Below are positions 8,364 to 62,491 of a stretch of 62,677 nucleotides of DNA, piece by piece; the first letter of the stretch is position 1; every line of letters starts with the position of its first letter. The stretch comes from a virus. Location of the stretch: the IMG/VR virus record IMGVR_UViG_3300021339_000001, positions 1 through 62,677 of that record; one strand, written 5' to 3'. The notes under the pieces were generated by a model, which did not search any database, was not told the DNA's origin, and saw nothing but the letters and a program-made list of their open reading frames with translations. Both the position numbers and the translations under genes were made by a program.

Positions 8364-9484
8364 TGGGCAAGGGCTTCAACGTCGCAGCGGATATCGTCAA
8401 TAGGACCGCTGACGGGCGTGACATCAACGACATGTGGGCTGAATTTCAAGCCACCGTTGCGCTGCGCAACTCGCGTCGGCAGCCGTTGATCGACCTGCTG
8501 ACGTTCCCGGTTACCAACGTGATCGAGGATGTTCCACAGATCGGTCAGGAGGACTTCGAGGAGGCATCGGAGTTCGGTGTGCCGAAGGGGATTCGGCCGC
8601 AGCTCACCTACTTCTCGCTGGCATACACCTTCAAGTGGTACGACCTGGCGAAGCGGAACACGTGGCGATTCCTCGCCGACGCGACCGCCGCGCAGGTCGA
8701 AGCCAACCACCAGGTGGCGTTGGACGCGGACAATCGTCTCGTCTTCAAGACGGTCATGCACACGCTGTTCCGCAACACCAACCGATCGGCCACGATCAAC
8801 GGCCAGTCCTACAACGTGTACGCTCTCTACAACAACGATGGCACCGTGCCGCCGGAGTACGCGGGCAACACGTTCGACGGCACGCACACCCACTACCTGG
8901 TGAGCGGCGCGGCCGGTATCGACTCGGGTGACTTCGAGGCGATGATCGAGCACCTTCGGCACCACGGGTACTCACCAGCCAACGGTATGCAGCTCGTTGC
9001 GCTCGTGAATCCGGCACAGTCGGTCGCGATCCGCACGTGGAGGGCGAACACCGCCAACGCGAACGGCGCCGTCGCTCTCTACGACTTCATCCCCGCGTCG
9101 AATCAGCCGAGCCTGATCGTCCCGAACTCGGATGGTCTGCTTGGCACCATTCCGCCGTCGTCCTTCCAGGGCTTCAGCGTGATCGGCAGCTACGGGAGTG
9201 TGCTGATCATCGAAGAGGACTACTGCCCCGCTGGCTACGTGGCGATGATCGCGACTGGCGGCGCGGCCAACCTCCGCAACCCGGTCGGTATTCGGATGCA
9301 CCCGAACGCGTCGCTTCAGGGTCTCCTGCTGCTCGGCGGTAACCAGACGGGCTACCCGTTGATCGAGTCTTTTTACACCCGCGGACTCGGCACCGGCATT
9401 CGTCAGCGCGGCGGCACGGTCATCATGCAGATCAAGGCCTCCGGCAACTACGACATTCCGGCGCTCTACGCGAACGTGCCGTGA
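8363..9484 (+). CDS. Major capsid protein
   Basis: 373 aa. ATG overlaps the upstream stop (TGATG). Position after scaffold and decoration genes fits. Confidence 0.85.
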   Translation: MGKGFNVAADIVNRTADGRDINDMWAEFQATVALRNSRRQPLIDLLTFPVTNVIEDVPQIGQEDFEEASEFGVPKGIRPQLTYFSLAYTFKWYDLAKRNTWRFLADATAAQVEANHQVALDADNRLVFKTVMHTLFRNTNRSATINGQSYNVYALYNNDGTVPPEYAGNTFDGTHTHYLVSGAAGIDSGDFEAMIEHLRHHGYSPANGMQLVALVNPAQSVAIRTWRANTANANGAVALYDFIPASNQPSLIVPNSDGLLGTIPPSSFQGFSVIGSYGSVLIIEEDYCPAGYVAMIATGGAANLRNPVGIRMHPNASLQGLLLLGGNQTGYPLIESFYTRGLGTGIRQRGGTVIMQIKASGNYDIPALYANVP

Positions 9485-9497
9485 TAGGAGCAGACAC

Positions 9498-9860
9498 GTG
9501 AGCAAGCAGATCGACATGAGTAAGAACTCATTCACCGACGACGAGGTTCAGTACATGCGTGAGCGCATGATGTCGGTTCCCGGTGAAGACCCTGAGCCCG
9601 AGCCGGAGCCCAACTTCGACACCGTCCGCGACGTGACGTCGCCCACGCCACCGATCATCGGCGTGGATGCGCCACCGCCTCCCTCTGCGCCGACGGAGCC
9701 AGAGAACGCGCCGGAGACCGAATCGGTGGACGAGGGCGACGAGTTCGAGCGTCTTCCAGCCGAGTCACTTCGACAGATGCTGCGTGATCGCGAGCAGCCG
9801 ACGTCGGGCACCAAGCCGGAGCTCATCGAGCGGTTGCGTTCGCTTCCGCCGAAGGAGTAA
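9498..9860 (+). CDS. Hypothetical protein with Pro/Glu-rich linker and C-terminal SAP/HeH-like motif
   Basis: C-terminal motif LRQMLRDREQPTSGTKPELIERLRSL. RBS aggag. Confidence 0.65.
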   Translation: MSKQIDMSKNSFTDDEVQYMRERMMSVPGEDPEPEPEPNFDTVRDVTSPTPPIIGVDAPPPPSAPTEPENAPETESVDEGDEFERLPAESLRQMLRDREQPTSGTKPELIERLRSLPPKE

Positions 9861-9879
9861 CTAGTGGGAGGGGAACTCG

Positions 9880-10197
9880 GTGGCGACCGCGGCAGACATT
9901 GATCAACTGAGGTTGTTGATCGACGACCGCAACGCCGCCGAGTTCTCTGACGACTACCTCGCTGAACTGCTGGACGCGGGCTCTACGATGAACGCGACGG
10001 CCGCGACGTTGTGGCGCGTGAAGGCAGCGCGTTACGTCAAGCTCGTACACGTCAAGGAAGGTTCTAGCACCCGGAACCTGGGCGACATGCACGCGCACGC
10101 GTTGGCCATGGCCAAGGTGTACGGCGATGATCCGGGTGGCGATGAAGAAACGCCGATCACCGGGCGAGCTGGGACGCGGGAGATCACACGTGCCTGA
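9880..10197 (+). CDS. Head-to-tail adaptor
   Basis: Size, position and N-terminal ADIDQLRLLIDD...YLAELLD pattern. Confidence 0.6.
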   Translation: MATAADIDQLRLLIDDRNAAEFSDDYLAELLDAGSTMNATAATLWRVKAARYVKLVHVKEGSSTRNLGDMHAHALAMAKVYGDDPGGDEETPITGRAGTREITRA

Positions 10198-10576
10198 TCA
10201 GGATGTCGAGTTCGAACACGACGTGCAGCGTGAGCTGACGCGTTGGTTCATCGACACCGATCCGATCGAGATCGCACTCGTTCCATATGAGCGTATACGT
10301 GTCTCCAACGGTGGATTTCAGCTCGTGGCGCAGACGCCTCGAGCGATCCAACGTCTCCGGCTTTGCGAGGTTGACTCGGTATTCGCTGGCGAGCTGCGAC
10401 GGACCGACGACGGCATCCAACGCGATCTTACCTTGACGTTACTTGGCATGTGGGATGCGATCATTCAGCCCTACGATCGATTCACACATGATGATGCGCA
10501 GTGGGAAGTACTCTCTGACCTGCGCTACAACAACTGGGAACGACGCGCAACGGTGGTGCGACGTGGCACGCCGTAG
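10190..10576 (+). CDS. Head-tail connector protein
   Basis: ORF 10127..10576 trimmed to GTG10190, which overlaps the upstream stop. Confidence 0.55.
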   Translation: MPDQDVEFEHDVQRELTRWFIDTDPIEIALVPYERIRVSNGGFQLVAQTPRAIQRLRLCEVDSVFAGELRRTDDGIQRDLTLTLLGMWDAIIQPYDRFTHDDAQWEVLSDLRYNNWERRATVVRRGTP

Positions 10577-28394: not shown

Positions 28395-28423
28395 ACGTTA
28401 GCCTAGCTGCACGATCGTGTCAA
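28395..28423 (-). promoter_or_regulatory. Early promoter P6 (TTGACA-N17-TAACGT)
   Basis: Identical 33-bp block to P1. Embedded in the 3' end of the methyltransferase gene. Confidence 0.75.
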
Positions 28424-29772
28424 ATCGTCGTCCAGTGGTGCGTGACGTCGACTACGGTCTCGCGCTCAGCGTCTCCGTACTTGCGCGCTAGCAGTCGATC
28501 GGTCAACGCCAGCGACACGCCAACGTCGCCGTCTGGCGTCCCGTTCAGCGCCCGCAACGCCGCACCGGCGATCCAACGTCCAGCCTGGACGGGTACGCCC
28601 TTGCCCCAGCCTGGTCCGAGATCAGGCGCACTACGAACAGGCCAGATCTTCCACGCATCGGGAAAGCCTTGGATCCTGGCAACCTCACGATGTGTCAACG
28701 TTCGCGGCAACGTCGGGTGAACGATCAAGTGCACACCACCGCCGGTGACCACACGCGCTGGACGATCCCAGTGCCAACGGATCGGCTGATTGCCGGGTCG
28801 TCCCATCCAGAAGTCATTCTCAATGAGGCGCTTCCACTTCGGAATGCGCTCCACCGTTCCGTCGTCGCGTATCACCTTGGTGTCGTAGTCCCAACCGCGG
28901 GGAAACGTACCGGTTCGTGCGTACAGATCGCGCATAACCGAGTTGATCGTCTCACCTTCTGCCCACGGCGCGACGTTGAACACGTCACGAATACGTTCGA
29001 GCGTCGGCGAGTAGTAGATGTCGTGTCCGTCGACCGAACCAGTACCATCATGCGCTTCGCGTCGTGCCCATCGCGAGCTGTTGACGACCTCCACATGAGT
29101 GCAGTCGCAGGCCCGTGGCGGGCTGATCCGCGTTGAGCAAGCACATCGTGTTCCGACGTAGGGTTGCTCCACCATCGTCATACTGGCCGGTAACAGATCC
29201 CGCAGTGCATCCCCAAGAACTGGGATGTAATCCAGTGTCGGCGGGCTGGCCCCAAACGGAATACGTGATGCTACGAAAAAGTAACGTTTCCGCATCGAAC
29301 AGCCGCCGACCGACAGGTTGTTGTGCAACACGTGATAGAGGTGGTAGTCCAGTCCAGTTTCTTTTTCGAGATGACTACGGAGCGCGCGCATCAACGGAAG
29401 ACCTTGCCGGAACGCCTGTTGCACCGACTCAAAGATCACGATCTCAGGTGACACCAGGCTGGCGTATCTGATCACCTCCCACATACACTCGTTGATCGCG
29501 GCGTCCTGACCGCGAAAGTGCTTGGGAGACAGTGTGCTGAAACCGGAGCAGGGCGGGTTGCCGAACACGAGTTGCACATCGTCGATCGCGTGCCACTGCG
29601 TCGGATCGACCGCGATGCTATCCCAATCATCGCCTAGGAGTCGACGATTGGCCAGGCAGTTGTACACGCCGAATCCGAGTGAACGTGAGAACTTGGCGAC
29701 GAGCTCGAACCCAGCTTGCACCGCACCGAGAGTGAACCCGCCGCCGAAGCCGTGAACGTCAACTGCTCTCAT
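28420..29772 (-). CDS. DNA (cytosine-5)-methyltransferase
   Basis: Motif I FGGGFTLG, motif IV GNPPCSGFS, FESVQ (ENV-like) and the late QGFP motif. Confidence 0.85.
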   Translation of the reverse strand: MRAVDVHGFGGGFTLGAVQAGFELVAKFSRSLGFGVYNCLANRRLLGDDWDSIAVDPTQWHAIDDVQLVFGNPPCSGFSTLSPKHFRGQDAAINECMWEVIRYASLVSPEIVIFESVQQAFRQGLPLMRALRSHLEKETGLDYHLYHVLHNNLSVGGCSMRKRYFFVASRIPFGASPPTLDYIPVLGDALRDLLPASMTMVEQPYVGTRCACSTRISPPRACDCTHVEVVNSSRWARREAHDGTGSVDGHDIYYSPTLERIRDVFNVAPWAEGETINSVMRDLYARTGTFPRGWDYDTKVIRDDGTVERIPKWKRLIENDFWMGRPGNQPIRWHWDRPARVVTGGGVHLIVHPTLPRTLTHREVARIQGFPDAWKIWPVRSAPDLGPGWGKGVPVQAGRWIAGAALRALNGTPDGDVGVSLALTDRLLARKYGDAERETVVDVTHHWTTI

Positions 29773-30199
29773 CGTACTCGTCTCGAACGTTTCGCCAACC
29801 CCACGCGCGTAGGATGGCGGCGATCGCGGGAGGACGCCAGCCGGTCGGTTTCACGACGTCATGCGGTGAACTGCGCTTGGAGTCCGATCCGTCGCTGGAT
29901 GCACGCTGCTTGGTCATGTTGGCACGGTGGACCTCATCCCAGAGATGTTGCCAAGGCAATCCCATCAGGTGCGCCGTACCCATCGCGACGTACACGATGT
30001 CGATCAACGCGTCGGCCATCTTGACGGGATCGTTCTCGTCGCAACCTTCGATGAATTCCTTGAGTTCTTCCCTAAGAAACTCAATTCGAAACTCGACTAC
30101 GTCGTCGGACAATTCACGTGATCGTGGTCCGGGATACGATGATTCGGGTAAACCAAACTTAGTGTGGAATCGACCAACGTCGTCGAAGTTACTTGACAT
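29759..30199 (-). CDS. MazG-like (all-alpha) nucleoside triphosphate pyrophosphohydrolase
   Basis: EFRIEFLREELKEFIEG plus DALIDIVYVAMG acidic-helix motifs. Confidence 0.7.
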   Translation of the reverse strand: MSSNFDDVGRFHTKFGLPESSYPGPRSRELSDDVVEFRIEFLREELKEFIEGCDENDPVKMADALIDIVYVAMGTAHLMGLPWQHLWDEVHRANMTKQRASSDGSDSKRSSPHDVVKPTGWRPPAIAAILRAWGWRNVRDEYDESS

Positions 30200-31190
30200 T
30201 TTGAGTCACCTGATCATAGACCCACGCATACGTCTTGGCGAGACCATCCGTCAAGTTGGTATTGACCGGTTCGTAACCGTACGTCTCGGCGAACAACGTG
30301 TTGTCACTGGATCGACCGCGCACGCCTTCAGGACCGTGAACATGTTTGATCGTGAGGTGCCTCATGTCGGCAATGTCCATGATCAACGCTGCGAGCTGAT
30401 TCACCGTGATCAACTCCGACGATCCGATGTTGACCGGTCCGGGATAGTACGCACTGGTCATGACGCTGAGCGTCGCGTCGACGCAGTCATCCACGTACAA
30501 GAACGTTCGCGTCTGCTCGCCATCGCCCCAGATGTCGATCTCGGTATGACCGTGAATTTTTGCCTCGGCCACCTTTCTGCACAAGGCAGCAGGTGCCTTC
30601 TCGCGACCGCCTTGCCATGATCCGAAGGGCCCGTAGACGTTGTGGTAACGCGCGGCGCGAGCGTCGAGCGCACCTTTTTGTCGATAGGCCTCACAAAGAC
30701 GCTCGGTGTACAACTTCTCCCACCCATATCCATCCTCAGGATCGGCCGGATACGCCTCGTCTTCACGGAGCGCTGGCCCGTTTTCTGAGATCTGACGGTA
30801 AGACGGATATACGCACGCGCTGGATGAGAAGAAGAATCGCTCGACGTCGGCGAACTTTGCTGCCTCTAATGCGGTAACACTGAGTCGAACGTTTCGTAGG
30901 CAATCCAGGTCGTGGTCGGCGATAAACCCCATACCACCCATATCTGCGGCGAGGTCGAACACCATGTCCGTACCGTGCATCATGGACGCCAGGGTTCGTG
31001 ATGCGAACGCCGCACTGATGTCATACAGTGGCACGTTATGCGCGCTTGGTACCGTGTACCACCAGTCGGATTGACTCTTGACGTCGATCGCGATGACCTC
31101 ATCAAAGATACGAGCGAGTCGTTTTGTCAGGTGTCCGCCAATGAATCCGCCCGCACCGAGTACCATAGCTTTTGAGAAAACCTTGATCAC
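30189..31190 (-). CDS. NAD-dependent sugar-nucleotide epimerase, GDP-mannose 3,5-epimerase-like
   Basis: GAGGFIGGHL Rossmann motif. LAADMGGMGFI, SSACVYP, YGWEKL (YxxxK), GREKAPAALCRK and GPEGVRGRSSDN closely match the plant GME signature blocks as recalled from memory. Confidence 0.75.
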   Translation of the reverse strand: MIKVFSKAMVLGAGGFIGGHLTKRLARIFDEVIAIDVKSQSDWWYTVPSAHNVPLYDISAAFASRTLASMMHGTDMVFDLAADMGGMGFIADHDLDCLRNVRLSVTALEAAKFADVERFFFSSSACVYPSYRQISENGPALREDEAYPADPEDGYGWEKLYTERLCEAYRQKGALDARAARYHNVYGPFGSWQGGREKAPAALCRKVAEAKIHGHTEIDIWGDGEQTRTFLYVDDCVDATLSVMTSAYYPGPVNIGSSELITVNQLAALIMDIADMRHLTIKHVHGPEGVRGRSSDNTLFAETYGYEPVNTNLTDGLAKTYAWVYDQVTQNVK

Positions 31191-32215
31191 GTGATCATCA
31201 CCTCAAACCACCTCGGGAAGAATGCCGCCGTTACCTCAGGAATGAAATTGACGTGATCGAACAGTGCGCGAATTGTCTCGTAGTACAGGGAGTCGACGTC
31301 GCGTCGATCACTATGCTCGATATCGCGGAGGGCGCTCAAGAACCGACCGGTATGACGGTAGCCGTGCAGCTCGGCTTCGACGTCGTTCCAAGGATCGTGG
31401 TCGTTACGCTTTTGGTGCACCATGGCACCACCAAATTGGACGTACTGGTTCTCCATCTGAGCCAACACATGTTCGGCGACGTAGCCCGCCCAGATGTCGT
31501 CGTACCGTCCAATACCAGGCCAGACTCCCATCAGGATCGCGAGGTCGCCGCGATAGGCCGTCGACTGGCTGTTCAGTGGCGCGAAGATGTGCGGATCGAT
31601 GATCGCCTGACGCGCGTTGCAGACGTGTCGATCACCGCCGGTAACACGGGTGATCGCGTCGACATCGGGATCACCTGTCCACAGGGCTGCGACGACGGCG
31701 ATATCCGACGGCGTCGGAACGTCGAAATCGCGTGTTCCAAACGTGGAGTCGTACTGATCGTATGGCAATCCACGGGCACGTACCGCGGGAGCGCAGAGCA
31801 TGCCGGGGTTGAACAGTCCGCCTCCTCCGCCGATGGGATAGGTCACAGGAAATTGGTGCGGGCCCGACATCGCGTTCTTCACGTGTGTGAAGAAGTCAGC
31901 AGCGGGGACGTTGTCGTCGTCCACGGTGACAATGATACCGGGCCGTAACTCGTGGGCCGCTGCGATCGCGAGATTTCGACGTTGGATCGAGCGCCAACCG
32001 ATCGCCTCGCTGAGCTTGGGCCATCGGTCGTGTTGTTCCTCGGCGGTCAGAAAATCACCACCGAGAGCTTCGACGTACTCCTTAAGCTCGGGATTGGATT
32101 CCTGATCGGCGGCGACGATCAGGTGACCGTGTTGTGCCCACTCCGCGTACGCGGTTGGACGCTTGTTGATGGACGTACTGACGATTATCACATCTGGCCG
32201 TACGTTCTCATCCAC
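31187..32215 (-). CDS. RGP / GT75-like protein (UDP-arabinopyranose-mutase / reversibly glycosylated polypeptide family)
   Basis: DVIIVST...HLIVAADQESNP, IIVTVDDDNVP (DxD) and IGRYDDIWAGYV, compared with plant RGP DIVIPT, YHLIIVQDGDP, TIDDDCF and IGRYDDMWAGW. Confidence 0.65.
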   Translation of the reverse strand: MDENVRPDVIIVSTSINKRPTAYAEWAQHGHLIVAADQESNPELKEYVEALGGDFLTAEEQHDRWPKLSEAIGWRSIQRRNLAIAAAHELRPGIIVTVDDDNVPAADFFTHVKNAMSGPHQFPVTYPIGGGGGLFNPGMLCAPAVRARGLPYDQYDSTFGTRDFDVPTPSDIAVVAALWTGDPDVDAITRVTGGDRHVCNARQAIIDPHIFAPLNSQSTAYRGDLAILMGVWPGIGRYDDIWAGYVAEHVLAQMENQYVQFGGAMVHQKRNDHDPWNDVEAELHGYRHTGRFLSALRDIEHSDRRDVDSLYYETIRALFDHVNFIPEVTAAFFPRWFEVMIT

Positions 32216-33527
32216 TGCGGCCGATCCTTTCGTCGATCATGCGCAGGTGGCGCGCCTCAGCGACGGCCATGTCGTAGTGTGCGCGTTGCGCGCGAACGAG
32301 CCAGAGCCACGTGTCACGGTTCTGACTCAGGTAGTCGACGCGTGACCTGAGATCATCCGGCGACGTGACCCGCAGCCAGTCGCGTAGCTCGCTTGGCGCG
32401 TCGCCAAGAATGTGGTTCTGCGTGTCGTACAGCGGGTGAAAGAAGCAAACGGTTCCGACCGCAAACGCCTGCCAAGGCTTGGTGGTTGCCCATCCTGAGC
32501 CACTGCTCGGCGTGGTGAGCGTCGTCTTGACTGATCTGAGCTTGTCGTAGTACTCGTTCCACGGCGCCGACGTGATCGTCCGACCGATCGCGAGCTGCGA
32601 GCTGTCCGACCATCGACCGTGAATGAATGCGGGATCAAGTGGTAGGACGTATTCGGTCAGTGCTTGAAGACGCGAGACCGACGTCTTCTTGATGATGGTC
32701 CCAGCTTCGTTGATGAAGAGACCAAACGCGTCACGATCTTCCCAGTTCTCGAAGAACCACGGGTGAATGTGTTGAGGCATGATTCCACAGATCTCGAGAC
32801 GCGAGTACACGTACTTCTGTTCGTAGTACCACGTCTCAGTGTTCCACGTCGCAACGTCGCCGAAACCTCGATCTGCGGGATCACTGGGGTCCCCGTAACG
32901 CTCGCAGCGTTGACGTTTGGTCAAGTCGTACTGACCAAGGATCGGGTGACGTAACGGCCACTTCAGATCCCGTGTCTTGATCGTGTTGCGTGGATCTGTG
33001 ATCAACCAGATCTCTTCCCGGTTGATCGGGTCGGTCATCCTGAACCGATTGATACCTCGGATCACGTGCGCACCATACTTGACGCAGTTCACATACGGCT
33101 TGCTGTACGCGTCACGAGCGCGAACCTGCGGAATCGGATAGTGGCTCGTGCAGTGTTGACCGATCCACACGATCATGGCGTCCAGATCGGTGTAATGTGG
33201 CATCACGTGTTCGTCGAAGATCTCGACTGTTCGCACGAGCGCCTCATGCGTATAAGTCTCAGGACGAGCGCTGTAGAACTCCTTCTTGTACTTTGTCAGA
33301 GTAGGTGCGATCTGCGTCCACGGATTCTCGACGTTTGGTGGCAACCCCACCTCGCTGGGAACCTCGCCCTTGCTTGATCCGACGAGTACGAACGTGTCGT
33401 CAGGTCGACGTGTCGCGAGGTCGATAAGTGTGTTGGTCGGTTCGTCGTCGCCACCTGTCATAGCCCAGGTGCCATCGGTGAACCGGAACGCGCGACCAAG
33501 TCGCGCGTACCCGATCCTCTTTCCCAT
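32208..33527 (-). CDS. GT-B glycosyltransferase resembling phage T4 DNA beta-glucosyltransferase
   Basis: Remote, by-eye colinear matches to T4 BGT. KRIGYARLG matches KIAIINMG, and EIWLITDPRNT matches IYYLFTDIRLP. ATTKPWQAFAVGTVCFF matches ITLRVWETMASDAVMLI, and the C-terminal helix also aligns. Confidence 0.5.
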   Translation of the reverse strand: MGKRIGYARLGRAFRFTDGTWAMTGGDDEPTNTLIDLATRRPDDTFVLVGSSKGEVPSEVGLPPNVENPWTQIAPTLTKYKKEFYSARPETYTHEALVRTVEIFDEHVMPHYTDLDAMIVWIGQHCTSHYPIPQVRARDAYSKPYVNCVKYGAHVIRGINRFRMTDPINREEIWLITDPRNTIKTRDLKWPLRHPILGQYDLTKRQRCERYGDPSDPADRGFGDVATWNTETWYYEQKYVYSRLEICGIMPQHIHPWFFENWEDRDAFGLFINEAGTIIKKTSVSRLQALTEYVLPLDPAFIHGRWSDSSQLAIGRTITSAPWNEYYDKLRSVKTTLTTPSSGSGWATTKPWQAFAVGTVCFFHPLYDTQNHILGDAPSELRDWLRVTSPDDLRSRVDYLSQNRDTWLWLVRAQRAHYDMAVAEARHLRMIDERIGRSG

Positions 33528-38821: not shown

Positions 38822-40660
38822 TCAGCGGTACTTGTCACCCCAGTTGTTCGTCAAGACGTCAGCCGACCACGTGATAGGCACCGCGTAGTTATCACGATCC
38901 GTGCACGTTTCAACGATCAATCGTGCGACCTCTTCGGCGTCTTCGATCGGAACGTCAGCCACGATCTCATCGTGCACCGGCAAGATCATGATACCCGGAC
39001 CAAGAACGGAATCACAGGCGATCAAGTTTTGCTTCAAGATCTCAGCGGCGTGCGACTGAATCTTGTAGTTGACGAGCGTATAGGGCTTGCCGGGCTCACA
39101 CGGCATGTACCGACCAAGAGGTGTGTAGATGAACGGCGGCAAGTTGTGTCGAGCCCCGTTCATGATGCCCTCAGATTCGATGTCGCGCTGCATCTGAAGA
39201 ATGCCGGGGTACGTCGCGTCGAACGCGTCGACGACCATCTTCATGATCTCAAAGCCCACACCCGCGGTGGTCGCCATCTTGCCGACACCAGCACCGAACA
39301 GCTTACCGTAGGTAGCGTTCTTCATAAGCTGCCGACGCGCATCCTTCTTGTCGATCGGAGTCTGGAACGCCTGAGCCGCGAGTCCACAGAAGAAGTCACC
39401 GCCCTGCTCGTCCGCATGTCGGAACGTACGGATCATGCCTTCATCACGTGAGAAGTGCGTCGCGAGGCGTGCTTCGATCTGATCTGCGTCGCACGTAACG
39501 AGCGCGTGATTCTCGCTTGGGATGAAACCGGTGCGGACCGTTGGGTCCTTACGCGGCAACGTTTGGAGAGCAGGATCGGTCATCGACATACGAGATGTTC
39601 GTGTTCCGCACGTCCAGATCGACGGATGGAGCCTGTGGTTGGCGTCCATCATCTCGAGGAAGTTGTCGAAGTAGGGACCGACCGTTTTCTCGAACTTACG
39701 AATCTTCAACAACACGCGACCGATATCGTGGTCGATCGACCCGAGAACTTCCTTGTCGAGTGATCGCGCGCCACCTTGCGTGTATTTTTCTTGATAGGGG
39801 ATCTCATGCGCGTTCAGAACCGCGATGACCTGCTGACTGCTGTTCGCGTTCTGGATTCCGTACGCGTCACGAAGCCACATCTTGGCGTCGCCGACCCACG
39901 CGTTAAGTTCACTACGCTTTCGAACGCAGTACGCGGGATCGATGCGCGCGCCGCGTCGTTCCATGTTGAAGACGGCCTGAAGCGCACCCATCTCGAGCTG
40001 ATAAGTAGCGGCGAACGAGTTCAGAACTGGTGCGTGAAATCGTTCGTAGAGGTGACACGTCAACACCGGATCAAGTGCCGCGTAGATCCAGTAGGCGGGG
40101 ACGTCGATCGGTACGGTGTCGAACGTCCAACGGTTGGTCTTCATGGCGTCGTCGAGCAGACGTTGCGCGGCCGACGCCTTGGGGTCGATCAGCATCGACG
40201 ACAGCGGCTTGAGACCCTTGAGTCGCTGCGGGTCGAGTAGATGTGCCATGGTCATAGTGTCGTGACTGCGGTCCCACGGCCACTTGAACCCAGTGAAGTG
40301 GTTGGTGATGAATCGTGCGTCGAACTTCAAGTTGTGTAACACGATCTCACCACGATACTTGGTGAGAACCTCGCGGGCCAGTCCGCCCCAACCGTCCCAC
40401 GGTAACGCCCAGCCGGTCGACAGGTCACCGAATTGGATCATACGAAGTCGATGCTGCTCAGGTCTAAGTCCTCCGGTCTCGGTGTCAACACCGAGAACAC
40501 GACGGTGCTCGCCGAGCCAGCGCATGAACTCGTTCGCGTCGTCTAGTGTCGTGATGAGATGAAGCTGAACGTCGGCGAGTGGACTCGTGGCAGGTGCTCG
40601 ATCGCCTGCCTTGACAAGTTCGGTCACCAGGCGTCGATGATCCAGAGAAAGATCGTCCAA
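38822..40660 (-). CDS. DNA polymerase I (family A) with 3'-5' exonuclease domain
   Basis: Exo motif VDTETGGL, motif B RRQLMKNATYGKLFG, motif C LPVHDEIV. Confidence 0.9.
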   Translation of the reverse strand: MDDLSLDHRRLVTELVKAGDRAPATSPLADVQLHLITTLDDANEFMRWLGEHRRVLGVDTETGGLRPEQHRLRMIQFGDLSTGWALPWDGWGGLAREVLTKYRGEIVLHNLKFDARFITNHFTGFKWPWDRSHDTMTMAHLLDPQRLKGLKPLSSMLIDPKASAAQRLLDDAMKTNRWTFDTVPIDVPAYWIYAALDPVLTCHLYERFHAPVLNSFAATYQLEMGALQAVFNMERRGARIDPAYCVRKRSELNAWVGDAKMWLRDAYGIQNANSSQQVIAVLNAHEIPYQEKYTQGGARSLDKEVLGSIDHDIGRVLLKIRKFEKTVGPYFDNFLEMMDANHRLHPSIWTCGTRTSRMSMTDPALQTLPRKDPTVRTGFIPSENHALVTCDADQIEARLATHFSRDEGMIRTFRHADEQGGDFFCGLAAQAFQTPIDKKDARRQLMKNATYGKLFGAGVGKMATTAGVGFEIMKMVVDAFDATYPGILQMQRDIESEGIMNGARHNLPPFIYTPLGRYMPCEPGKPYTLVNYKIQSHAAEILKQNLIACDSVLGPGIMILPVHDEIVADVPIEDAEEVARLIVETCTDRDNYAVPITWSADVLTNNWGDKYR

Positions 40661-40730: not shown

Positions 40731-41315
40731 CTACTTGGTCTCGCTTACGGAGTTCAGGTTGTCCGGCGGATTCATCGTGTTGAATCGGTTCCACCTATAC
40801 TCCTCATAGTGATAGCGGGGCCACGACCCATCGTAGTCATTCATAGCATGGGCAACGGTAACACGCACACCGCTGTCGTTGAGGATCGTCCGACCTTCTT
40901 CAGGTCGAAGATGCGTCTCGTTCGGCGAGATCAACATCACAACGCGTGCGACACCAGAGTTCGCGGCTAGCTTAGCGCAGGTCAGACAGCACGACGTCGT
41001 GGTGTACAGCGTGCCGCCGACGTAGTCTCGTCGATCGGCGAATAGCATGGCGTTGGCCTCGGCGTGGATCGCGACGCAGTTATCGTGATCAGCCCTCAGC
41101 TCCTGCGTACGCCCGCGTTGGCAGAACGACGCGCAACCGGGCAACAACACCGAGACAGATGCGACCAGACCGGCCGGCGGGCCGTTGTAGCCCGTCGCTA
41201 CCGGTCGTTGACTGGCGTCGACGATCACGGCGCCTACCTGTCGGTTGGTGCAGCGCGAACGCAGCGCGATCGACGACGCGATGCTCAGCCAGGTGTCATC
41301 CCACGAAGGTCTCAT
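40731..41315 (-). CDS. dCMP deaminase
   Basis: Zinc motifs HAEANA and CCLTCAKL. Confidence 0.85.
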   Translation of the reverse strand: MRPSWDDTWLSIASSIALRSRCTNRQVGAVIVDASQRPVATGYNGPPAGLVASVSVLLPGCASFCQRGRTQELRADHDNCVAIHAEANAMLFADRRDYVGGTLYTTTSCCLTCAKLAANSGVARVVMLISPNETHLRPEEGRTILNDSGVRVTVAHAMNDYDGSWPRYHYEEYRWNRFNTMNPPDNLNSVSETK

Positions 41316-41464
41316 CCGAGTAACTCGTCGTTCATGATCTCGTCCACCAACTCCTGTTGCTCCGCTTTGGTTAAATACTTAGGCCAGATACATGGGTTCT
41401 GACAACTGTGCGGATACGTCACGCACTCTTTATGACACCCACATTCATCGCGTTTATCTTTCAC
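41312..41464 (-). CDS. Cys-rich small protein (50 aa)
   Basis: Hand translation VKDKRDECGCHKECVTYPHSCQNPCIWPKY.... GTGA overlap with the hydroxymethylase-like stop and ATGA overlap with the deaminase start. Confidence 0.5.
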   Translation of the reverse strand: MKDKRDECGCHKECVTYPHSCQNPCIWPKYLTKAEQQELVDEIMNDELLG

Positions 41465-42327
41465 GGATTAACCCACTCGCTGAGAAGTCCGTCGAAGTCG
41501 GGGACGACGACTTTCATAAGCTTTGGATTGTACGTAAGCTCGTGCGCACGATTCATGATCATGGTCCACCGCATACGCGGTGGAGTAGTTAACTGTCTAC
41601 GTATATCCGCACCAAGTCCGTTATTTGGCACGATCGGATAGTCGATTCGCGTCACGAAATCAGAGTTGACTCGCATAGCTGCTTCGACATCCTTGTCGTA
41701 CAGATGCAACGAGTCGACGACGTGCGTGTACTCACCCTGTTCGACGTTGAGCGCGTTTGCCATGCTGGCGTGCAACGTGGTGAACTGAAACGAGTCATAC
41801 GGCCAACCCATGTGTAGGTCGTTGCTCCGCATATGTGTCGTCATGTGGAGATGATAACGACGAAGATGCCACGACAGGTACACCGTGCACGGGTAGTCGT
41901 TTGCGTCGTCGTGAAACAGGTCCCACGACGGATCCCAGATCGTCGCGACGGCACGTCGTGTCTGGGGCGATTCGTCGAGACGAGTGATCACACGTGGGAT
42001 CTGCGCGCGAAGTCGTGGACCATACGCACCGTGGAACGTGCCGCCGTCCATGTAGGGACGTGTTGCTGGCGACAACGACTGCATTCGCGTCGGATCACTG
42101 AAGCCGCCTACGAGTTGAAGTGCCTCGATCGCGGCAAGCTTGACGTTCAACGACCGGCCTACGCCGACCATAAGCGAGTGCTGTGGATCGCTCAAGATGG
42201 TAGTGACGTTGCGCAGTTCGTACGTGCTCATACCGCGAGGCGAAACCTTCTCACCCTGCGTCAGAAGAAGCGACCGAAGTTTCTCGTACGCGTCGGCGGC
42301 TGTCGTCGCTTCGACCAGGTGTGCCAT
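41461..42327 (-). CDS. ThyA-fold deoxynucleotide C5-modifying enzyme with dCMP-hydroxymethylase signature
   Basis: ORF trimmed to MAHLVEA (gagagga RBS). Motifs SPRG, QTRRAVATIWDP, catalytic YPCT, and MRSNDLHMGWPYD with Asp at the ThyA-Asn177 / T4 gp42-Asp179 position. Confidence 0.7.
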   Translation of the reverse strand: MAHLVEATTAADAYEKLRSLLLTQGEKVSPRGMSTYELRNVTTILSDPQHSLMVGVGRSLNVKLAAIEALQLVGGFSDPTRMQSLSPATRPYMDGGTFHGAYGPRLRAQIPRVITRLDESPQTRRAVATIWDPSWDLFHDDANDYPCTVYLSWHLRRYHLHMTTHMRSNDLHMGWPYDSFQFTTLHASMANALNVEQGEYTHVVDSLHLYDKDVEAAMRVNSDFVTRIDYPIVPNNGLGADIRRQLTTPPRMRWTMIMNRAHELTYNPKLMKVVVPDFDGLLSEWVNP

Positions 42328-43207
42328 ATGCGATCCTCTCGGCGTACTCAATGCCCCTGTGGTGGGCAAATCGCCGAACCCACTGCGGGTGCGGTACGTG
42401 GTGATAAGGAATGTGGTTATCTCGTACGACACGCAGCGCCGACTGCCCCATGGCAACGACACGTGGTTTCCCTAACGCTCTCCACAGAGCACGGAGGTTG
42501 ATCTCCTCCAACGCGTTCGCGAGTCCGTAGTTGGTCGCCTGGATCGCCTCCAGACGATCCAGTAAGAACTCGCCGCTGGTGCCCCCGAAGGGCACGAACG
42601 CACTGGGGAAGTTCGCGTTGTTACGCCGTTCACCGAGCAACAGCAACTCAGGTTGTGTCGGACCGACGTACGTGGGCCACTCAGCGCTCAGATCTTTGAC
42701 CGCGTCGGCGCGACGTCGGGCGGCGTTGATCATCTTAGGGACGGTCTCAGACGTGACGGTGTCCACGAACGAGTAGCGTTCCGCGGCGCAGTGGAACCGG
42801 TAAAACCGCCACACCTGTTCGACGTGTGTTGGGTGAAGAAGGTCGTCACCGCGATCCCAGAGTCGCTTGCGGACGATGTGCAACGGCGTGTCCATAACGA
42901 CGCGTAACGCACCACGCGATCGAAGAAAGAGTTCCACGTGTCGATTCATCGCGGGAGTGAGTTTACTGAGTCCGCGGTAGAGTGGGCCGTACACAAGTTC
43001 GCCGACGTGCCAGCGATCGCAGATGATGTGGTGTCCGTTGTCTGGGTGATAACTGAGAAGTCGTGCCTCATATTCGACCAACGGATGATCGACCAGTGGA
43101 CCACTCGAGATGACCTGCACCGATCCCTGGCCGGTTAGCGCGTCGACGAGGGCGCGGATAAGTGTTGACTTACCCGCGCCGTCGATACCCTCAACGACGA
43201 TCAGCAT
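42251..43207 (-). CDS. Thymidylate-kinase-like P-loop dNMP kinase fused to a UDG-superfamily-like domain
   Basis: N-terminal VVEGIDGAGKST and ICDRWHVGELVY. C-terminal LLLGERRNN...FVPFGGTSGEFL and VPHPQW resemble the UDG family-4 GExPG...HPS motifs, with substitutions. Confidence 0.6.
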   Translation of the reverse strand: MLIVVEGIDGAGKSTLIRALVDALTGQGSVQVISSGPLVDHPLVEYEARLLSYHPDNGHHIICDRWHVGELVYGPLYRGLSKLTPAMNRHVELFLRSRGALRVVMDTPLHIVRKRLWDRGDDLLHPTHVEQVWRFYRFHCAAERYSFVDTVTSETVPKMINAARRRADAVKDLSAEWPTYVGPTQPELLLLGERRNNANFPSAFVPFGGTSGEFLLDRLEAIQATNYGLANALEEINLRALWRALGKPRVVAMGQSALRVVRDNHIPYHHVPHPQWVRRFAHHRGIEYAERIAYGTPGRSDDSRRRVRETSVASSDAG

Positions 43208-61744: not shown

Positions 61745-62491
61745 GTGGGATCATTAGCTGCGGTCATTGCGGTACGCGATGACCTCAAGGCCAAGTCACT
61801 GCGTGAGTTCACCGACGTGCACCGACTGTCACAGCGGTCTGAGCCGATGACGGGCCTCATTCGGGTCTACACGCCGACCGACGACGACGGCGAGAAGCTG
61901 CCGCCTGAGTCGACCCGGGTGCAGACGAACTGCCACAACATCCTGGGGACGGTTCGCGACTCGCTCTCTCGTCTCATGGACGTGGAGCTGACGCAGGACG
62001 TGGCCAACACGTCGGCGAAGGCGGACGTGATCGTTCGCGACGTCACGTTGCTCCGCGACGTGCCGGTGACCTACCTGCTCTTCCTCGAGAAGAAGCTGGT
62101 GGACCTGCGGACGTTCGTCCTGAAGATGCTGGTTCTCGACCCGGCGTTCGAGTGGTCGTGGGATGCTGATCTCGGTGCGTACAAGACACCGGTCGTCGGC
62201 ACCACCCGTACGAAGAAGGTGCCGTTCGCGTTCGAGAAGGCGCCCGCCACCGATCGTCACCCAGCGCAGGTCGACGTCTACCAGACGGACGTGATCGTCG
62301 GCACCTGGTCGACCACTCGTCTCTCGGGCGCCATTCCCTCGAGCGATCGCGACGAGATCTTGTCGCGCATCGACATGCTGACCGTCGCCGTCAAGGAGGC
62401 GCGTTCGCGGGGCAACGCGATCGAGGCGACGCCTGTCACGGCGGCTGACACGCTGTTCGAGTTCCTCTGGGAGGGCTCACTGGTTGGATGA
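61745..62491 (+). CDS. Hypothetical protein (248 aa) lying between the tRNAs and the tRNA-mimic locus
   Basis: gaaagga RBS with GTG start. No family recognised by eye. Confidence 0.7.
   Translation: MGSLAAVIAVRDDLKAKSLREFTDVHRLSQRSEPMTGLIRVYTPTDDDGEKLPPESTRVQTNCHNILGTVRDSLSRLMDVELTQDVANTSAKADVIVRDVTLLRDVPVTYLLFLEKKLVDLRTFVLKMLVLDPAFEWSWDADLGAYKTPVVGTTRTKKVPFAFEKAPATDRHPAQVDVYQTDVIVGTWSTTRLSGAIPSSDRDEILSRIDMLTVAVKEARSRGNAIEATPVTAADTLFEFLWEGSLVG

Follow-up and report, generated by a model that had tools for sequence, protein, structure and literature searches.

Tth UDGa, a family-4 uracil-DNA glycosylase (UDG) from Thermus thermophilus, binds uracil in a pocket made up of E41, G42, E47, F54, N80, and H155, in which N80 reads N3 and O4 of the base and H155 stabilizes the leaving group (PMC5387724). 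The H155S substitution lowers k2 of this enzyme by more than three orders of magnitude, G42D alone causes a loss of about 100-fold, and Figure 4 of the same study equates E47 with UNG Y66 (PMC5387724). In phages with hypermodified thymine, an active UDG is fused to the family-A DNA polymerase (PolA) and removes deoxyuridine (dU) arising from residual dUTP (bioRxiv 10.1101/2025.03.26.645540). In metaviromes with modified cytosine, deaminase genes colocalize with genes for PRA-PH, PolA, and thymidylate synthase (TS) homologs that carry Asp at position 177; five of seven such TS homologs made 5-methyl-dCMP (5mdCMP), one of the deaminases accepts 5mdCTP and shows background activity on C, and a kinase goes unmentioned (bioRxiv 10.1101/2024.12.05.627091). 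Positions 147 and 177 of the TS homologs separate cytosine-modified from unmodified metavirome contigs (PMC8670742). Here, we analyzed IMG/VR virus record IMGVR_UViG_3300021339_000001, a 62.7-kb metagenomic contig with 59.8% G+C, whose full length of 62,677 nucleotides is referred to below as the window. Its open reading frame (ORF) at 42251..43207, on the minus strand like all window features below unless stated otherwise, encodes an intact protein that joins a deoxynucleoside monophosphate (dNMP) kinase domain to a UDG-like domain. Our preferred reading, held tentatively and at slightly less than an even chance, is that the protein is a bifunctional member of a modified-cytosine pathway, in which a kinase for modified dCMP is coupled to a uracil-type DNA glycosylase that is probably active. 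A literature search found no described fusion of a thymidylate kinase (Tmk) to a UDG, an earlier mention in Iyer et al. 2013 being possible.

One reading frame encodes two domains

The ORF begins with ATG and encodes 318 amino acids, in which VEGIDGAGKST occupies residues 5 to 15, DRW residues 64 to 66, GERRN residues 192 to 196, and HPQWVRRF residues 273 to 280. A first-pass annotation, made from the letters of the window and its translated reading frames, had proposed a fusion of kinase and UDG-like domains in this frame, and the fusion is borne out by the intact protein and its homologs. A frameshift, or two separate genes read as one, was ruled out because hundreds of homologs share the same two-domain length, so the fusion is not a sequencing artifact. 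The division into two domains also stands, and only its limits, previously set at about 190 N-terminal and 120 C-terminal residues, had to be redrawn. The kinase domain covers residues 1 to about 150, a long linker helix residues 155 to 176 (42680..42745; DSSP on the AlphaFold2 model), the UDG-like domain residues 177 to 295, and a disordered C-terminal tail residues 296 to 318 (42251..42322 with the stop codon), where the predicted local distance difference test (pLDDT) score is below 50. The full-length AlphaFold2 model, built on a 47-sequence alignment, had a pLDDT of 93.7 and a predicted template modeling (pTM) score of 0.90. Because the full-length model returned only kinases from Foldseek, a second AlphaFold2 model was made of residues 150 to 318 alone, with a pLDDT of 89.2.

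The C-terminal domain has a predicted UDG-superfamily fold

Residues 177 to 295 (42323..42679) were assigned to the UDG superfamily by Foldseek searches of the PDB and BFVD with the AlphaFold2 models. Four parallel strands run through the domain model (residues 188 to 192, 227 to 231, 249 to 253, and 268 to 271), and GERRN, N231, and HPQ lie where the alpha/beta fold of the UDG superfamily has its motif A (after strand 1), its pocket Asn (at the end of strand 2), and its motif B His (after strand 4). When the domain-only model was compared with the PDB, the top 18 matches were all members of this superfamily, in line with the family-4/5 fold that the first-pass annotation had proposed; the absence of a UDG-like fold, which would have overturned that proposal, is not what the model shows. 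The best match was UdgX (6iod; E value of 6.5e-5, probability of 1.00, TM score of 0.55), and the others included the family-4 enzymes of Thermotoga maritima, Sulfolobus tokodaii, and T. thermophilus, the PolA-UDG of phage phiLo (9qhs), BdiUNG, and SMUG1. Among the proteins returned from BFVD were phage UDGs, with many PolA-UDG fusions, as well as two proteins about 330 amino acids long, one of them gp315 of Bacillus phage G. This gp315 (BFVD G3MA56, 331 amino acids) matches the UDG-like domain in fold and has a fusion-like length; it was missed by tblastn.

Sequence profiles gave much fainter signals. The Pfam UDG model matched 8 of 47 family members, weakly (best E value of 0.016), and hhalign against family 4 gave a probability of 18% and an E value of 1.3e-3, in the expected register with GERRN on GEGPG and N231 on N80. 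No UDG was among the matches when the C-terminal alignment was used as a profile against the PDB, and the C-terminal half is uncovered by any Pfam, NCBIfam, or PHROG model. The predicted link to the UDG superfamily is one of fold comparison and motif register. In that register, the motif A variant GERRN (42620..42634) aligns with family-4 GEGPG, and N231 within GLANA (residues 228 to 232, 42512..42526) corresponds to Asn80 of Tth UDGa. The segment AFVPFGGTSG (residues 203 to 212, 42572..42601) places F207 at the stacking F54, the fixed five-residue spacing from P206 to G212 being that from P53 to G59 in family 4. In the motif B variant HPQWVRRF (42368..42391), H273 corresponds to the catalytic His155.

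The first-pass annotation had remarked that GERRN and HPQ deviate from the family-4 motifs, and both deviations prove to be family-wide. Conservation was counted over 239 family representatives, whose motif A consensus is G-[DE]-x-R, not the family-4 GE(A/G)PG. Compared with family-4 HPS(S/A)(L/V)(L/V)R, motif B keeps the His-Pro pair and a downstream Arg, and Ser is replaced by Gln (Q275) in 232 of the 239. The cysteines of the family-4 4Fe-4S cluster are likewise missing, with no Cys at all in residues 177 to 295 and mostly zero to two in the relatives, unlike family 4 itself, in whose alignment C13, C16, and C100 are invariant. Because both motif A and the Fe-S cysteines depart from family 4, we do not place the domain there; on the strength of the models, we regard it as a new UDG-superfamily variant whose fusion context is new as well.

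The pocket positions are strongly conserved across the family. In motif A, G192 is found in 237 representatives, D/E193 in 234, and R195 in 212; P206 and G254 are present in all 239, N231 in 237, Y/F207 in 160, and F204, an extra and nearly invariant aromatic residue, in 234. The remaining motif B counts are 237 for H273, 238 for P274, 228 for R278, 235 for R279, and 233 for F280. The family-4 pocket residues E41, F54, N80, and H155 all have counterparts here (D/E193, F207, N231, and H273), and the conserved pattern of D/E193, N231, and H273 to F280 suggests a working pocket. To call the glycosylase module degenerate, as had been done at first, was too strong, given that D/E193, N231, H273, P274, Q275, R278, R279, and F280 are kept in 95 to 99% of the 239.

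The fusion is the usual form of the gene in a phage-confined family

A search of 5.8 billion proteins yielded 382 full-length homologs at an E value of ≤1e-3. Among the 120 homologs listed, all were 281 to 340 amino acids long and nearly all covered at least 87% of the query. Matches to the C-terminal domain profile numbered 1,893 cluster representatives (50% identity); 375 had an E value of ≤1e-30, and the best 150 of the 1,893 were nearly all 300 to 350 amino acids long with the domain at the C terminus. The genomes of 185,579 species held only four matches to the domain, all on contigs of metagenome-assembled genomes, and for this reason the kinase-UDG family is considered essentially confined to phages. 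The proteins are named thymidylate kinase, cytidylate kinase, or hypothetical in the databases. We also compared 85 related phage loci, each with flanks of 10 kb on either side, and the fusion is present in about 70 of them. The fusion had been regarded as unexpected for this pathway; within this lineage, the gene usually takes this form.

The domain also occurs without a kinase. The protein RsoM2USA_394 of a Ralstonia jumbo phage (locus L091, 3938-4396) has 152 amino acids with the motifs AEEH, RPF, WVN, and HPQYWKRF, and its gene lies among hypothetical genes, away from any TS or kinase module. The existence of this stand-alone form indicates that the UDG-like domain is an autonomous unit.

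Neither a dUTPase nor a canonical UDG was found in any fused locus within the 10-kb flanks, or elsewhere in the window. Loci in which the kinase stands alone do carry such genes. In L081 (IMGVR_UViG_3300044799_000031, 9369-10576), a canonical family-4 UDG of 207 amino acids, with its Cys cluster, GEAPG, and HPAYVLR, overlaps with its stop codon the start of a 195-amino-acid kinase-only gene by 4 nucleotides, and an Asp177 TS homolog and a Dcd-like gene follow. In the kinase-only loci L082, L083, and L085, a trimeric dUTPase is encoded within the module. This complementary distribution of UDG and dUTPase genes, seen in few independent lineages, links the module to uracil exclusion. As a matter of gene arrangement, L081 is the unfused counterpart of the fusion with the order reversed, the UDG preceding the kinase.

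The kinase half resembles YorR and thymidylate kinases

Residues 1 to 150 (42758..43207) form a Tmk/YorR-like P-loop dNMP kinase domain, as indicated by PHROG, profile, and fold matches. Residues 1 to 139 match PHROG 761, "thymidylate kinase," at 1e-17, and a profile of 47 homologs searched against the PDB found SPbeta YorR (2axp/3kb2) at 1e-20 over positions 2 to 163, with many Tmk structures after it, and the full-length model gave the same order in Foldseek, YorR first and Tmks next. The motifs typical of Tmk, a P-loop of the form EGxDGxGK(S/T)T and a DR-aromatic motif, are both present. In the P-loop EGIDGAGKST (residues 6 to 15, 43163..43192), E6, G7, D9, G12, and K13 are kept by almost all of the 223 representatives that align there. 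In DRW (43010..43018), the counterpart of Tmk DR(Y/H/F), D64 is found in 227 and R65 in all 228 of the representatives aligned over that region. A LID-like segment, RLWDRGDDL (residues 115 to 123, 42839..42865), contains R115 and R119 and aligns with KKRLRVRGDEY of YorR; R119 is present in 211 of the 239 representatives, and E70 and Y73 are conserved too. The curated cutoff for dTMP kinases was not reached, TIGR00041 of NCBIfam scoring 31.5 bits against a cutoff of 83.25, and Pfam PF02223 scores 27.4 against a cutoff of 27 but only over the 26 residues from 5 to 30. With scores so far below the curated dTMP-kinase cutoff, we class this half from its sequence as a YorR/Tmk-like dNMP kinase and not as a Tmk ortholog. 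It is gene context alone that suggests 5-methyl-dCMP or 5-hydroxymethyl-dCMP as its main substrate.

Gene neighborhood points to modified cytosine

The gene immediately downstream (41461..42327) encodes a TS homolog with Asp at the position of Asn177 and Thr at that of His147, for which dCMP methylase or hydroxymethylase activity is predicted. Its likely start is the ATG at 42327, which follows GAGAGGA, so that the 3' end of the fusion ORF overlaps it by 77 nucleotides (42251-42327); the overlapped part encodes the disordered tail. Replacement of Asn177 by Asp switches the substrate of TS from dUMP to dCMP. Next come two conserved partners, a gene of the dCMP-deaminase family (40731..41315) and a gene for a PolA of 612 amino acids (38822..40660) with a 3'-5' exonuclease and no UDG domain. 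Among the 85 loci, the kinase gene is accompanied by a TS homolog in 82, a deaminase-family gene in 74, PolA in 72, an SNF2 helicase in 64, and a PD-(D/E)XK nuclease in 53. In the fused loci, the TS homolog lies directly 3' of the kinase gene, usually with the deaminase and PolA next.

Every one of the 83 TS homologs (those of the 82 loci and that of the window) has Asp at the position of Escherichia coli Asn177. They retain Cys146, Arg166, Asp169, Glu58, Tyr94, His207, and Tyr209 but not His147, in whose place 80 of the 83 have Thr. The closest solved relative of the TS homolog in the window is MilA, a CMP hydroxymethylase. ThyX co-occurs in several of the loci (L003, L008, and L056) and in the cultured phage AXL3, which argues that the TS homolog is not the thymidylate synthase of these phages. 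An ordinary thymidylate-synthesis module of deaminase, TS, and Tmk, as AXL3 and DSL-LC01 have been annotated, was ruled out by Asp177 in 83 of 83 TS homologs together with ThyX. The first-pass annotation had expected a kinase for a modified dNMP in such a pathway, and the adjacent TS homolog fits that expectation, Asp177 being a dCMP-specific mark.

Three further genes, adjacent to one another, lie 10 to 12 kb from the fusion gene. They encode a MazG/PRA-PH pyrophosphohydrolase (29759-30199), a nucleotide-sugar epimerase (30189-31190), and a glycosyltransferase-like protein of 342 amino acids (31187-32215) that matches PDB entries 7yua/7xpr, named "Transglycosylse," at 1e-24. That name had led us to consider a DpdA-like protein, a reading that was dropped when the alignment showed a shared DDDN motif, which we take to be typical of glycosyltransferases. 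From its sequence, the trio (29759-32215) suggests sugar hypermodification of hydroxymethylcytosine, and given the epimerase and the glycosyltransferase-like ORF, hydroxymethylation followed by glycosylation is favored for the phage of the window.

Phage replication genes are present in the window, phage tail and lysis genes occur in the related loci, and no close DNA relative of the window was found among 50,697 deposited phage records. Three other genes of the window deserve mention. An ORF of 439 amino acids (32208-33527), for which Pfam, PHROG, NCBIfam, and the PDB gave no match, is found again in 11 of the 85 loci, at most 10 kb from the module. A homolog of C5-cytosine DNA methyltransferases (28420-29772) is encoded in a phage predicted to replace C with a C5-modified base, and similar genes occur in L061, L063, and L081. 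A DUF7873 protein (61745-62491, plus strand) matches its family at 2.8e-84, and in the P0072 contig a member of the same family, next to a Thg1-like gene, precedes the fusion gene by about 1 kb.

A cultured phage carries the fusion

Stenotrophomonas phage AXL3 has the gene order gp30 (NTP pyrophosphohydrolase), gp29 ("thymidylate kinase"), gp28 (TS homolog, GVPYD), and gp27 (deaminase). Its gp29, with 327 amino acids, contains PHPQYWKRF and is matched by the UDG-domain profile with an E value of 1.6e-16. AXL3 DNA resists 35 of 37 restriction enzymes, all with G or C in their sites, and is cut only by the two enzymes with A/T-only sites; the authors took the module to serve ordinary synthesis of dTDP, without remarking on the second domain (PMC7504290). 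The fusion is also present in Pseudoxanthomonas phage PW916.

Proposed function and alternatives

In the reading that we tentatively favor, the Asp177/Thr147 TS homolog would, judging from its conserved residues, convert dCMP to 5-methyl- or 5-hydroxymethyl-dCMP; the hydroxymethyl product is the likelier in the phage of the window because of the epimerase and the glycosyltransferase-like gene 10 kb away. The N-terminal kinase would then phosphorylate the C5-substituted dCMP, and probably dTMP too, to the diphosphate, feeding the phage PolA. The UDG-like domain, presumably family 4 derived and without Fe-S, would most likely flip out and excise uracil from phage DNA, and possibly further 4-oxo-pyrimidines that arise by deamination. 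It keeps what such chemistry would call for: the motif A acid, an aromatic stacker, a base-reading Asn, a leaving-group His, and a basic HPQxxRRF loop suited to DNA, in a domain that is basic as a whole, unlike the kinase half. The dU would come from a dUMP/dUTP pool raised by the deaminase that the phage itself encodes, together with a permissive kinase. The fusion would guarantee coexpression of precursor synthesis and DNA sanitation, and it may also place the kinase on replicating DNA. Of three roles floated in the first-pass annotation, exclusion of uracil made by the neighboring deaminase fits best, considering the UDG or dUTPase of the unfused relatives and the PolA-UDG precedent.

Several observations weigh against an active uracil glycosylase. 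The motif A Pro that family 4 (GE[A/G]PG) and phiLo (P55) have is replaced by Arg in 212 of the 239 representatives, the Gly42 position holds bulky and variable residues, a conserved counterpart of E47 or N89 was not found in the 239-representative alignment, and there is no Fe-S cluster. The complementary distribution of UDG and dUTPase genes was drawn from two independent lineages and from flanks of 10 kb. Moreover, one clade (L069, L073, L074, L080, and L084) has lost the motif B His, reading LPPPLYH, yet retains the domain. Its proteins of 311 to 314 amino acids are still UDG-like (VPF, LYWxN, and ALGNNA), with CDKGP as motif A, and this clade has, by its motifs, probably lost catalysis; because it keeps the domain nonetheless, a noncatalytic role comes into consideration.

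Such a role, in which the domain is a noncatalytic DNA or replisome tether that anchors the kinase and the supply of modified dNTPs at the fork, is in our view unlikely but the strongest of the alternatives. The loss of the motif A Pro, the bulky Gly42 position, and the His-less clade all speak for it, as does the basic character of the domain, whose median pI over the family is 8.6 versus 6.1 for the kinase domain (9.7 versus 7.2 in the 318-amino-acid protein). In about 46% of family members, not including the protein of the window, a disordered linker leads to a conserved C-terminal DL..WRP peptide that resembles a docking motif and is possibly one. Analogies are at hand in the poxvirus UDG that acts as a processivity subunit, in the UDG domains on the replicative polymerases of phiLo and Mpox, and in the T4 dNTP-synthetase complex coupled to replication. 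However, the phiLo and poxvirus UDGs are also catalytically active, the stand-alone jumbo phage version of 152 amino acids has no kinase to anchor, and if no base entered the pocket, conservation of N231 and H273 at about 99% would be difficult to account for.

A bound base need not be uracil. The domain could act on deaminated modified cytosine, that is, on thymine derived from 5-methylcytosine (5mC) or 5-hydroxymethyluracil (5hmU) derived from 5-hydroxymethylcytosine (5hmC) opposite G, in a repair of the TDG/SMUG type. The module produces C5-modified cytosine, the retained Asn and His imply that a 4-oxo-pyrimidine is read, and the loop that in Tth UDGa contains the C5-gating E47 ranges in length from 4 to 27 residues across the family and has no conserved acid, so that the pocket may admit 5-substituents. 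A glycosylase of this kind without mismatch discrimination would attack the normal T in phage DNA, though, and spontaneous deamination is minor within one lytic cycle. The kinase-only relatives, which place a dUTPase or a uracil-specific family-4 UDG in the same position, point to uracil, and we consider the proposal rather unlikely. The same low likelihood attaches to a bolder version, in which the domain founds a new phage-restricted UDG family, defined by G[DE]xR, HPQ[YFW]xRRF, lack of Fe-S, and an opened C5 pocket, that would excise deaminated modified cytosine with or without uracil. If this were true, the fusion would couple synthesis of a noncanonical base to repair of that base's decay product.

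It is improbable that the pocket binds or hydrolyzes free pyrimidine nucleotides (dUMP or hydroxymethyl-dUMP, for example), as a regulator, in pool sanitation, or in a composite site with the kinase. A fixed two-domain arrangement is suggested by the full-length pTM score, the neighboring genes all act on nucleotides, and UdgX crystals bind dUMP (6ajp, among the fold matches). A high pI and a basic loop, HPQxxRRF, nevertheless fit DNA binding, and the stand-alone version lies outside any nucleotide module. We know of no UDG-fold enzyme that works on free nucleotides.

Finally, a system related to aGPT-Pplases or DNA kinases such as 5-HMUDK, with hydroxymethyl groups in DNA as the target of the P-loop kinase and transfer of a substituent by the UDG-like domain, as in thymidine hypermodification, is a loose analogy drawn from P-loop kinases and glycosylase-like proteins of hypermodifying phages (PMC8989533), and we dismiss it as negligible, together with the pyrophosphorylase-type base modifier of the first-pass annotation: aGPT-Pplases are predicted helix-hairpin-helix proteins, not UDG-fold (PMC8989533), which leaves no structural basis for the comparison, the kinase here bears Tmk-type NMP motifs, the Asp177 TS partner is cytosine- and not uracil-specific, and tblastn at an E value of ≤1e-3 listed no record from the genera of 5-HMUDK phages (Pseudomonas M6 and PaMx11, Salmonella ViI, Bacillus SP10, and phiW-14).

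If the protein is a modified-dCMP kinase with an active uracil glycosylase, it would exemplify precursor synthesis and DNA sanitation in one polypeptide, and a minimal Fe-S-free UDG with an altered motif A would broaden the UDG superfamily. Such a domain may be of use as a reagent, either as a small glycosylase or as one that tolerates or targets 5-substituted pyrimidines, complementing the 5mC-selective deaminases known from such gene neighborhoods. A large phage-restricted UDG-like family, with its 1,893 cluster representatives, has been left unannotated. The fusion is tied almost one to one to Asp177 TS homologs and is usable as a marker of phages with C5-modified cytosine. AXL3, which is cultured and has restriction-resistant DNA, allows a direct test of the idea.

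Comparison with known systems

For the kinase half, the closest known proteins are YorR (2axp/3kb2) and the bacterial Tmks, which share the P-loop fold, EGxDGxGK[ST]T, the DR-aromatic motif, and an Arg-rich LID. The kinase core of the fusion is shorter, at about 150 amino acids, and its genomic partner makes modified dCMP, not dTMP. The module as a whole follows the logic of T4 gp1 and gp42 and of the Xp12-type 5mC pathway, with a dCMP-specific TS homolog, a kinase, a deaminase, and an NTP pyrophosphohydrolase. T-even phages were absent from the tblastn matches listed, and no gp1 structure was among the PDB sequence and fold matches. To our knowledge, neither the T4 nor the Xp12 kinase carries a UDG domain.

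Family-4 UDGs (Tth UDGa, 1ui0; T. maritima, 1l9g; S. tokodaii, 4zby) and UdgX are the best fold matches of the C-terminal domain, with agreement in strand order and motif positions. The phage domain has in common with family 4 the motif A acid (E41 and D/E193), the P53 to G59 spacing, N80 (N231), and the H155-Pro pair (H273-Pro) with a following Arg. It is set apart by its size of about 120 amino acids, against about 190 in family 4, by G[DE]xR in place of GE[AG]PG and HPQ[YFW]x[RK]RF in place of HPS[SA][LV][LV]R, by the lack of the four-Cys Fe-S cluster, of conserved equivalents of E47 and N89, and of the UdgX R-loop, and by its fusion to a kinase. Sequence profiles barely join it to family 4. 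The PolA-UDG fusions of phiLo, YerA41, and SP-15 (9qhs) likewise place a family-4-like UDG on an enzyme of replication or nucleotide metabolism in phages with modified pyrimidines. In those proteins, the partner is a polymerase, motif A keeps E53 and P55, and activity has been shown, whereas here the partner is a dNMP kinase and PolA is encoded separately.

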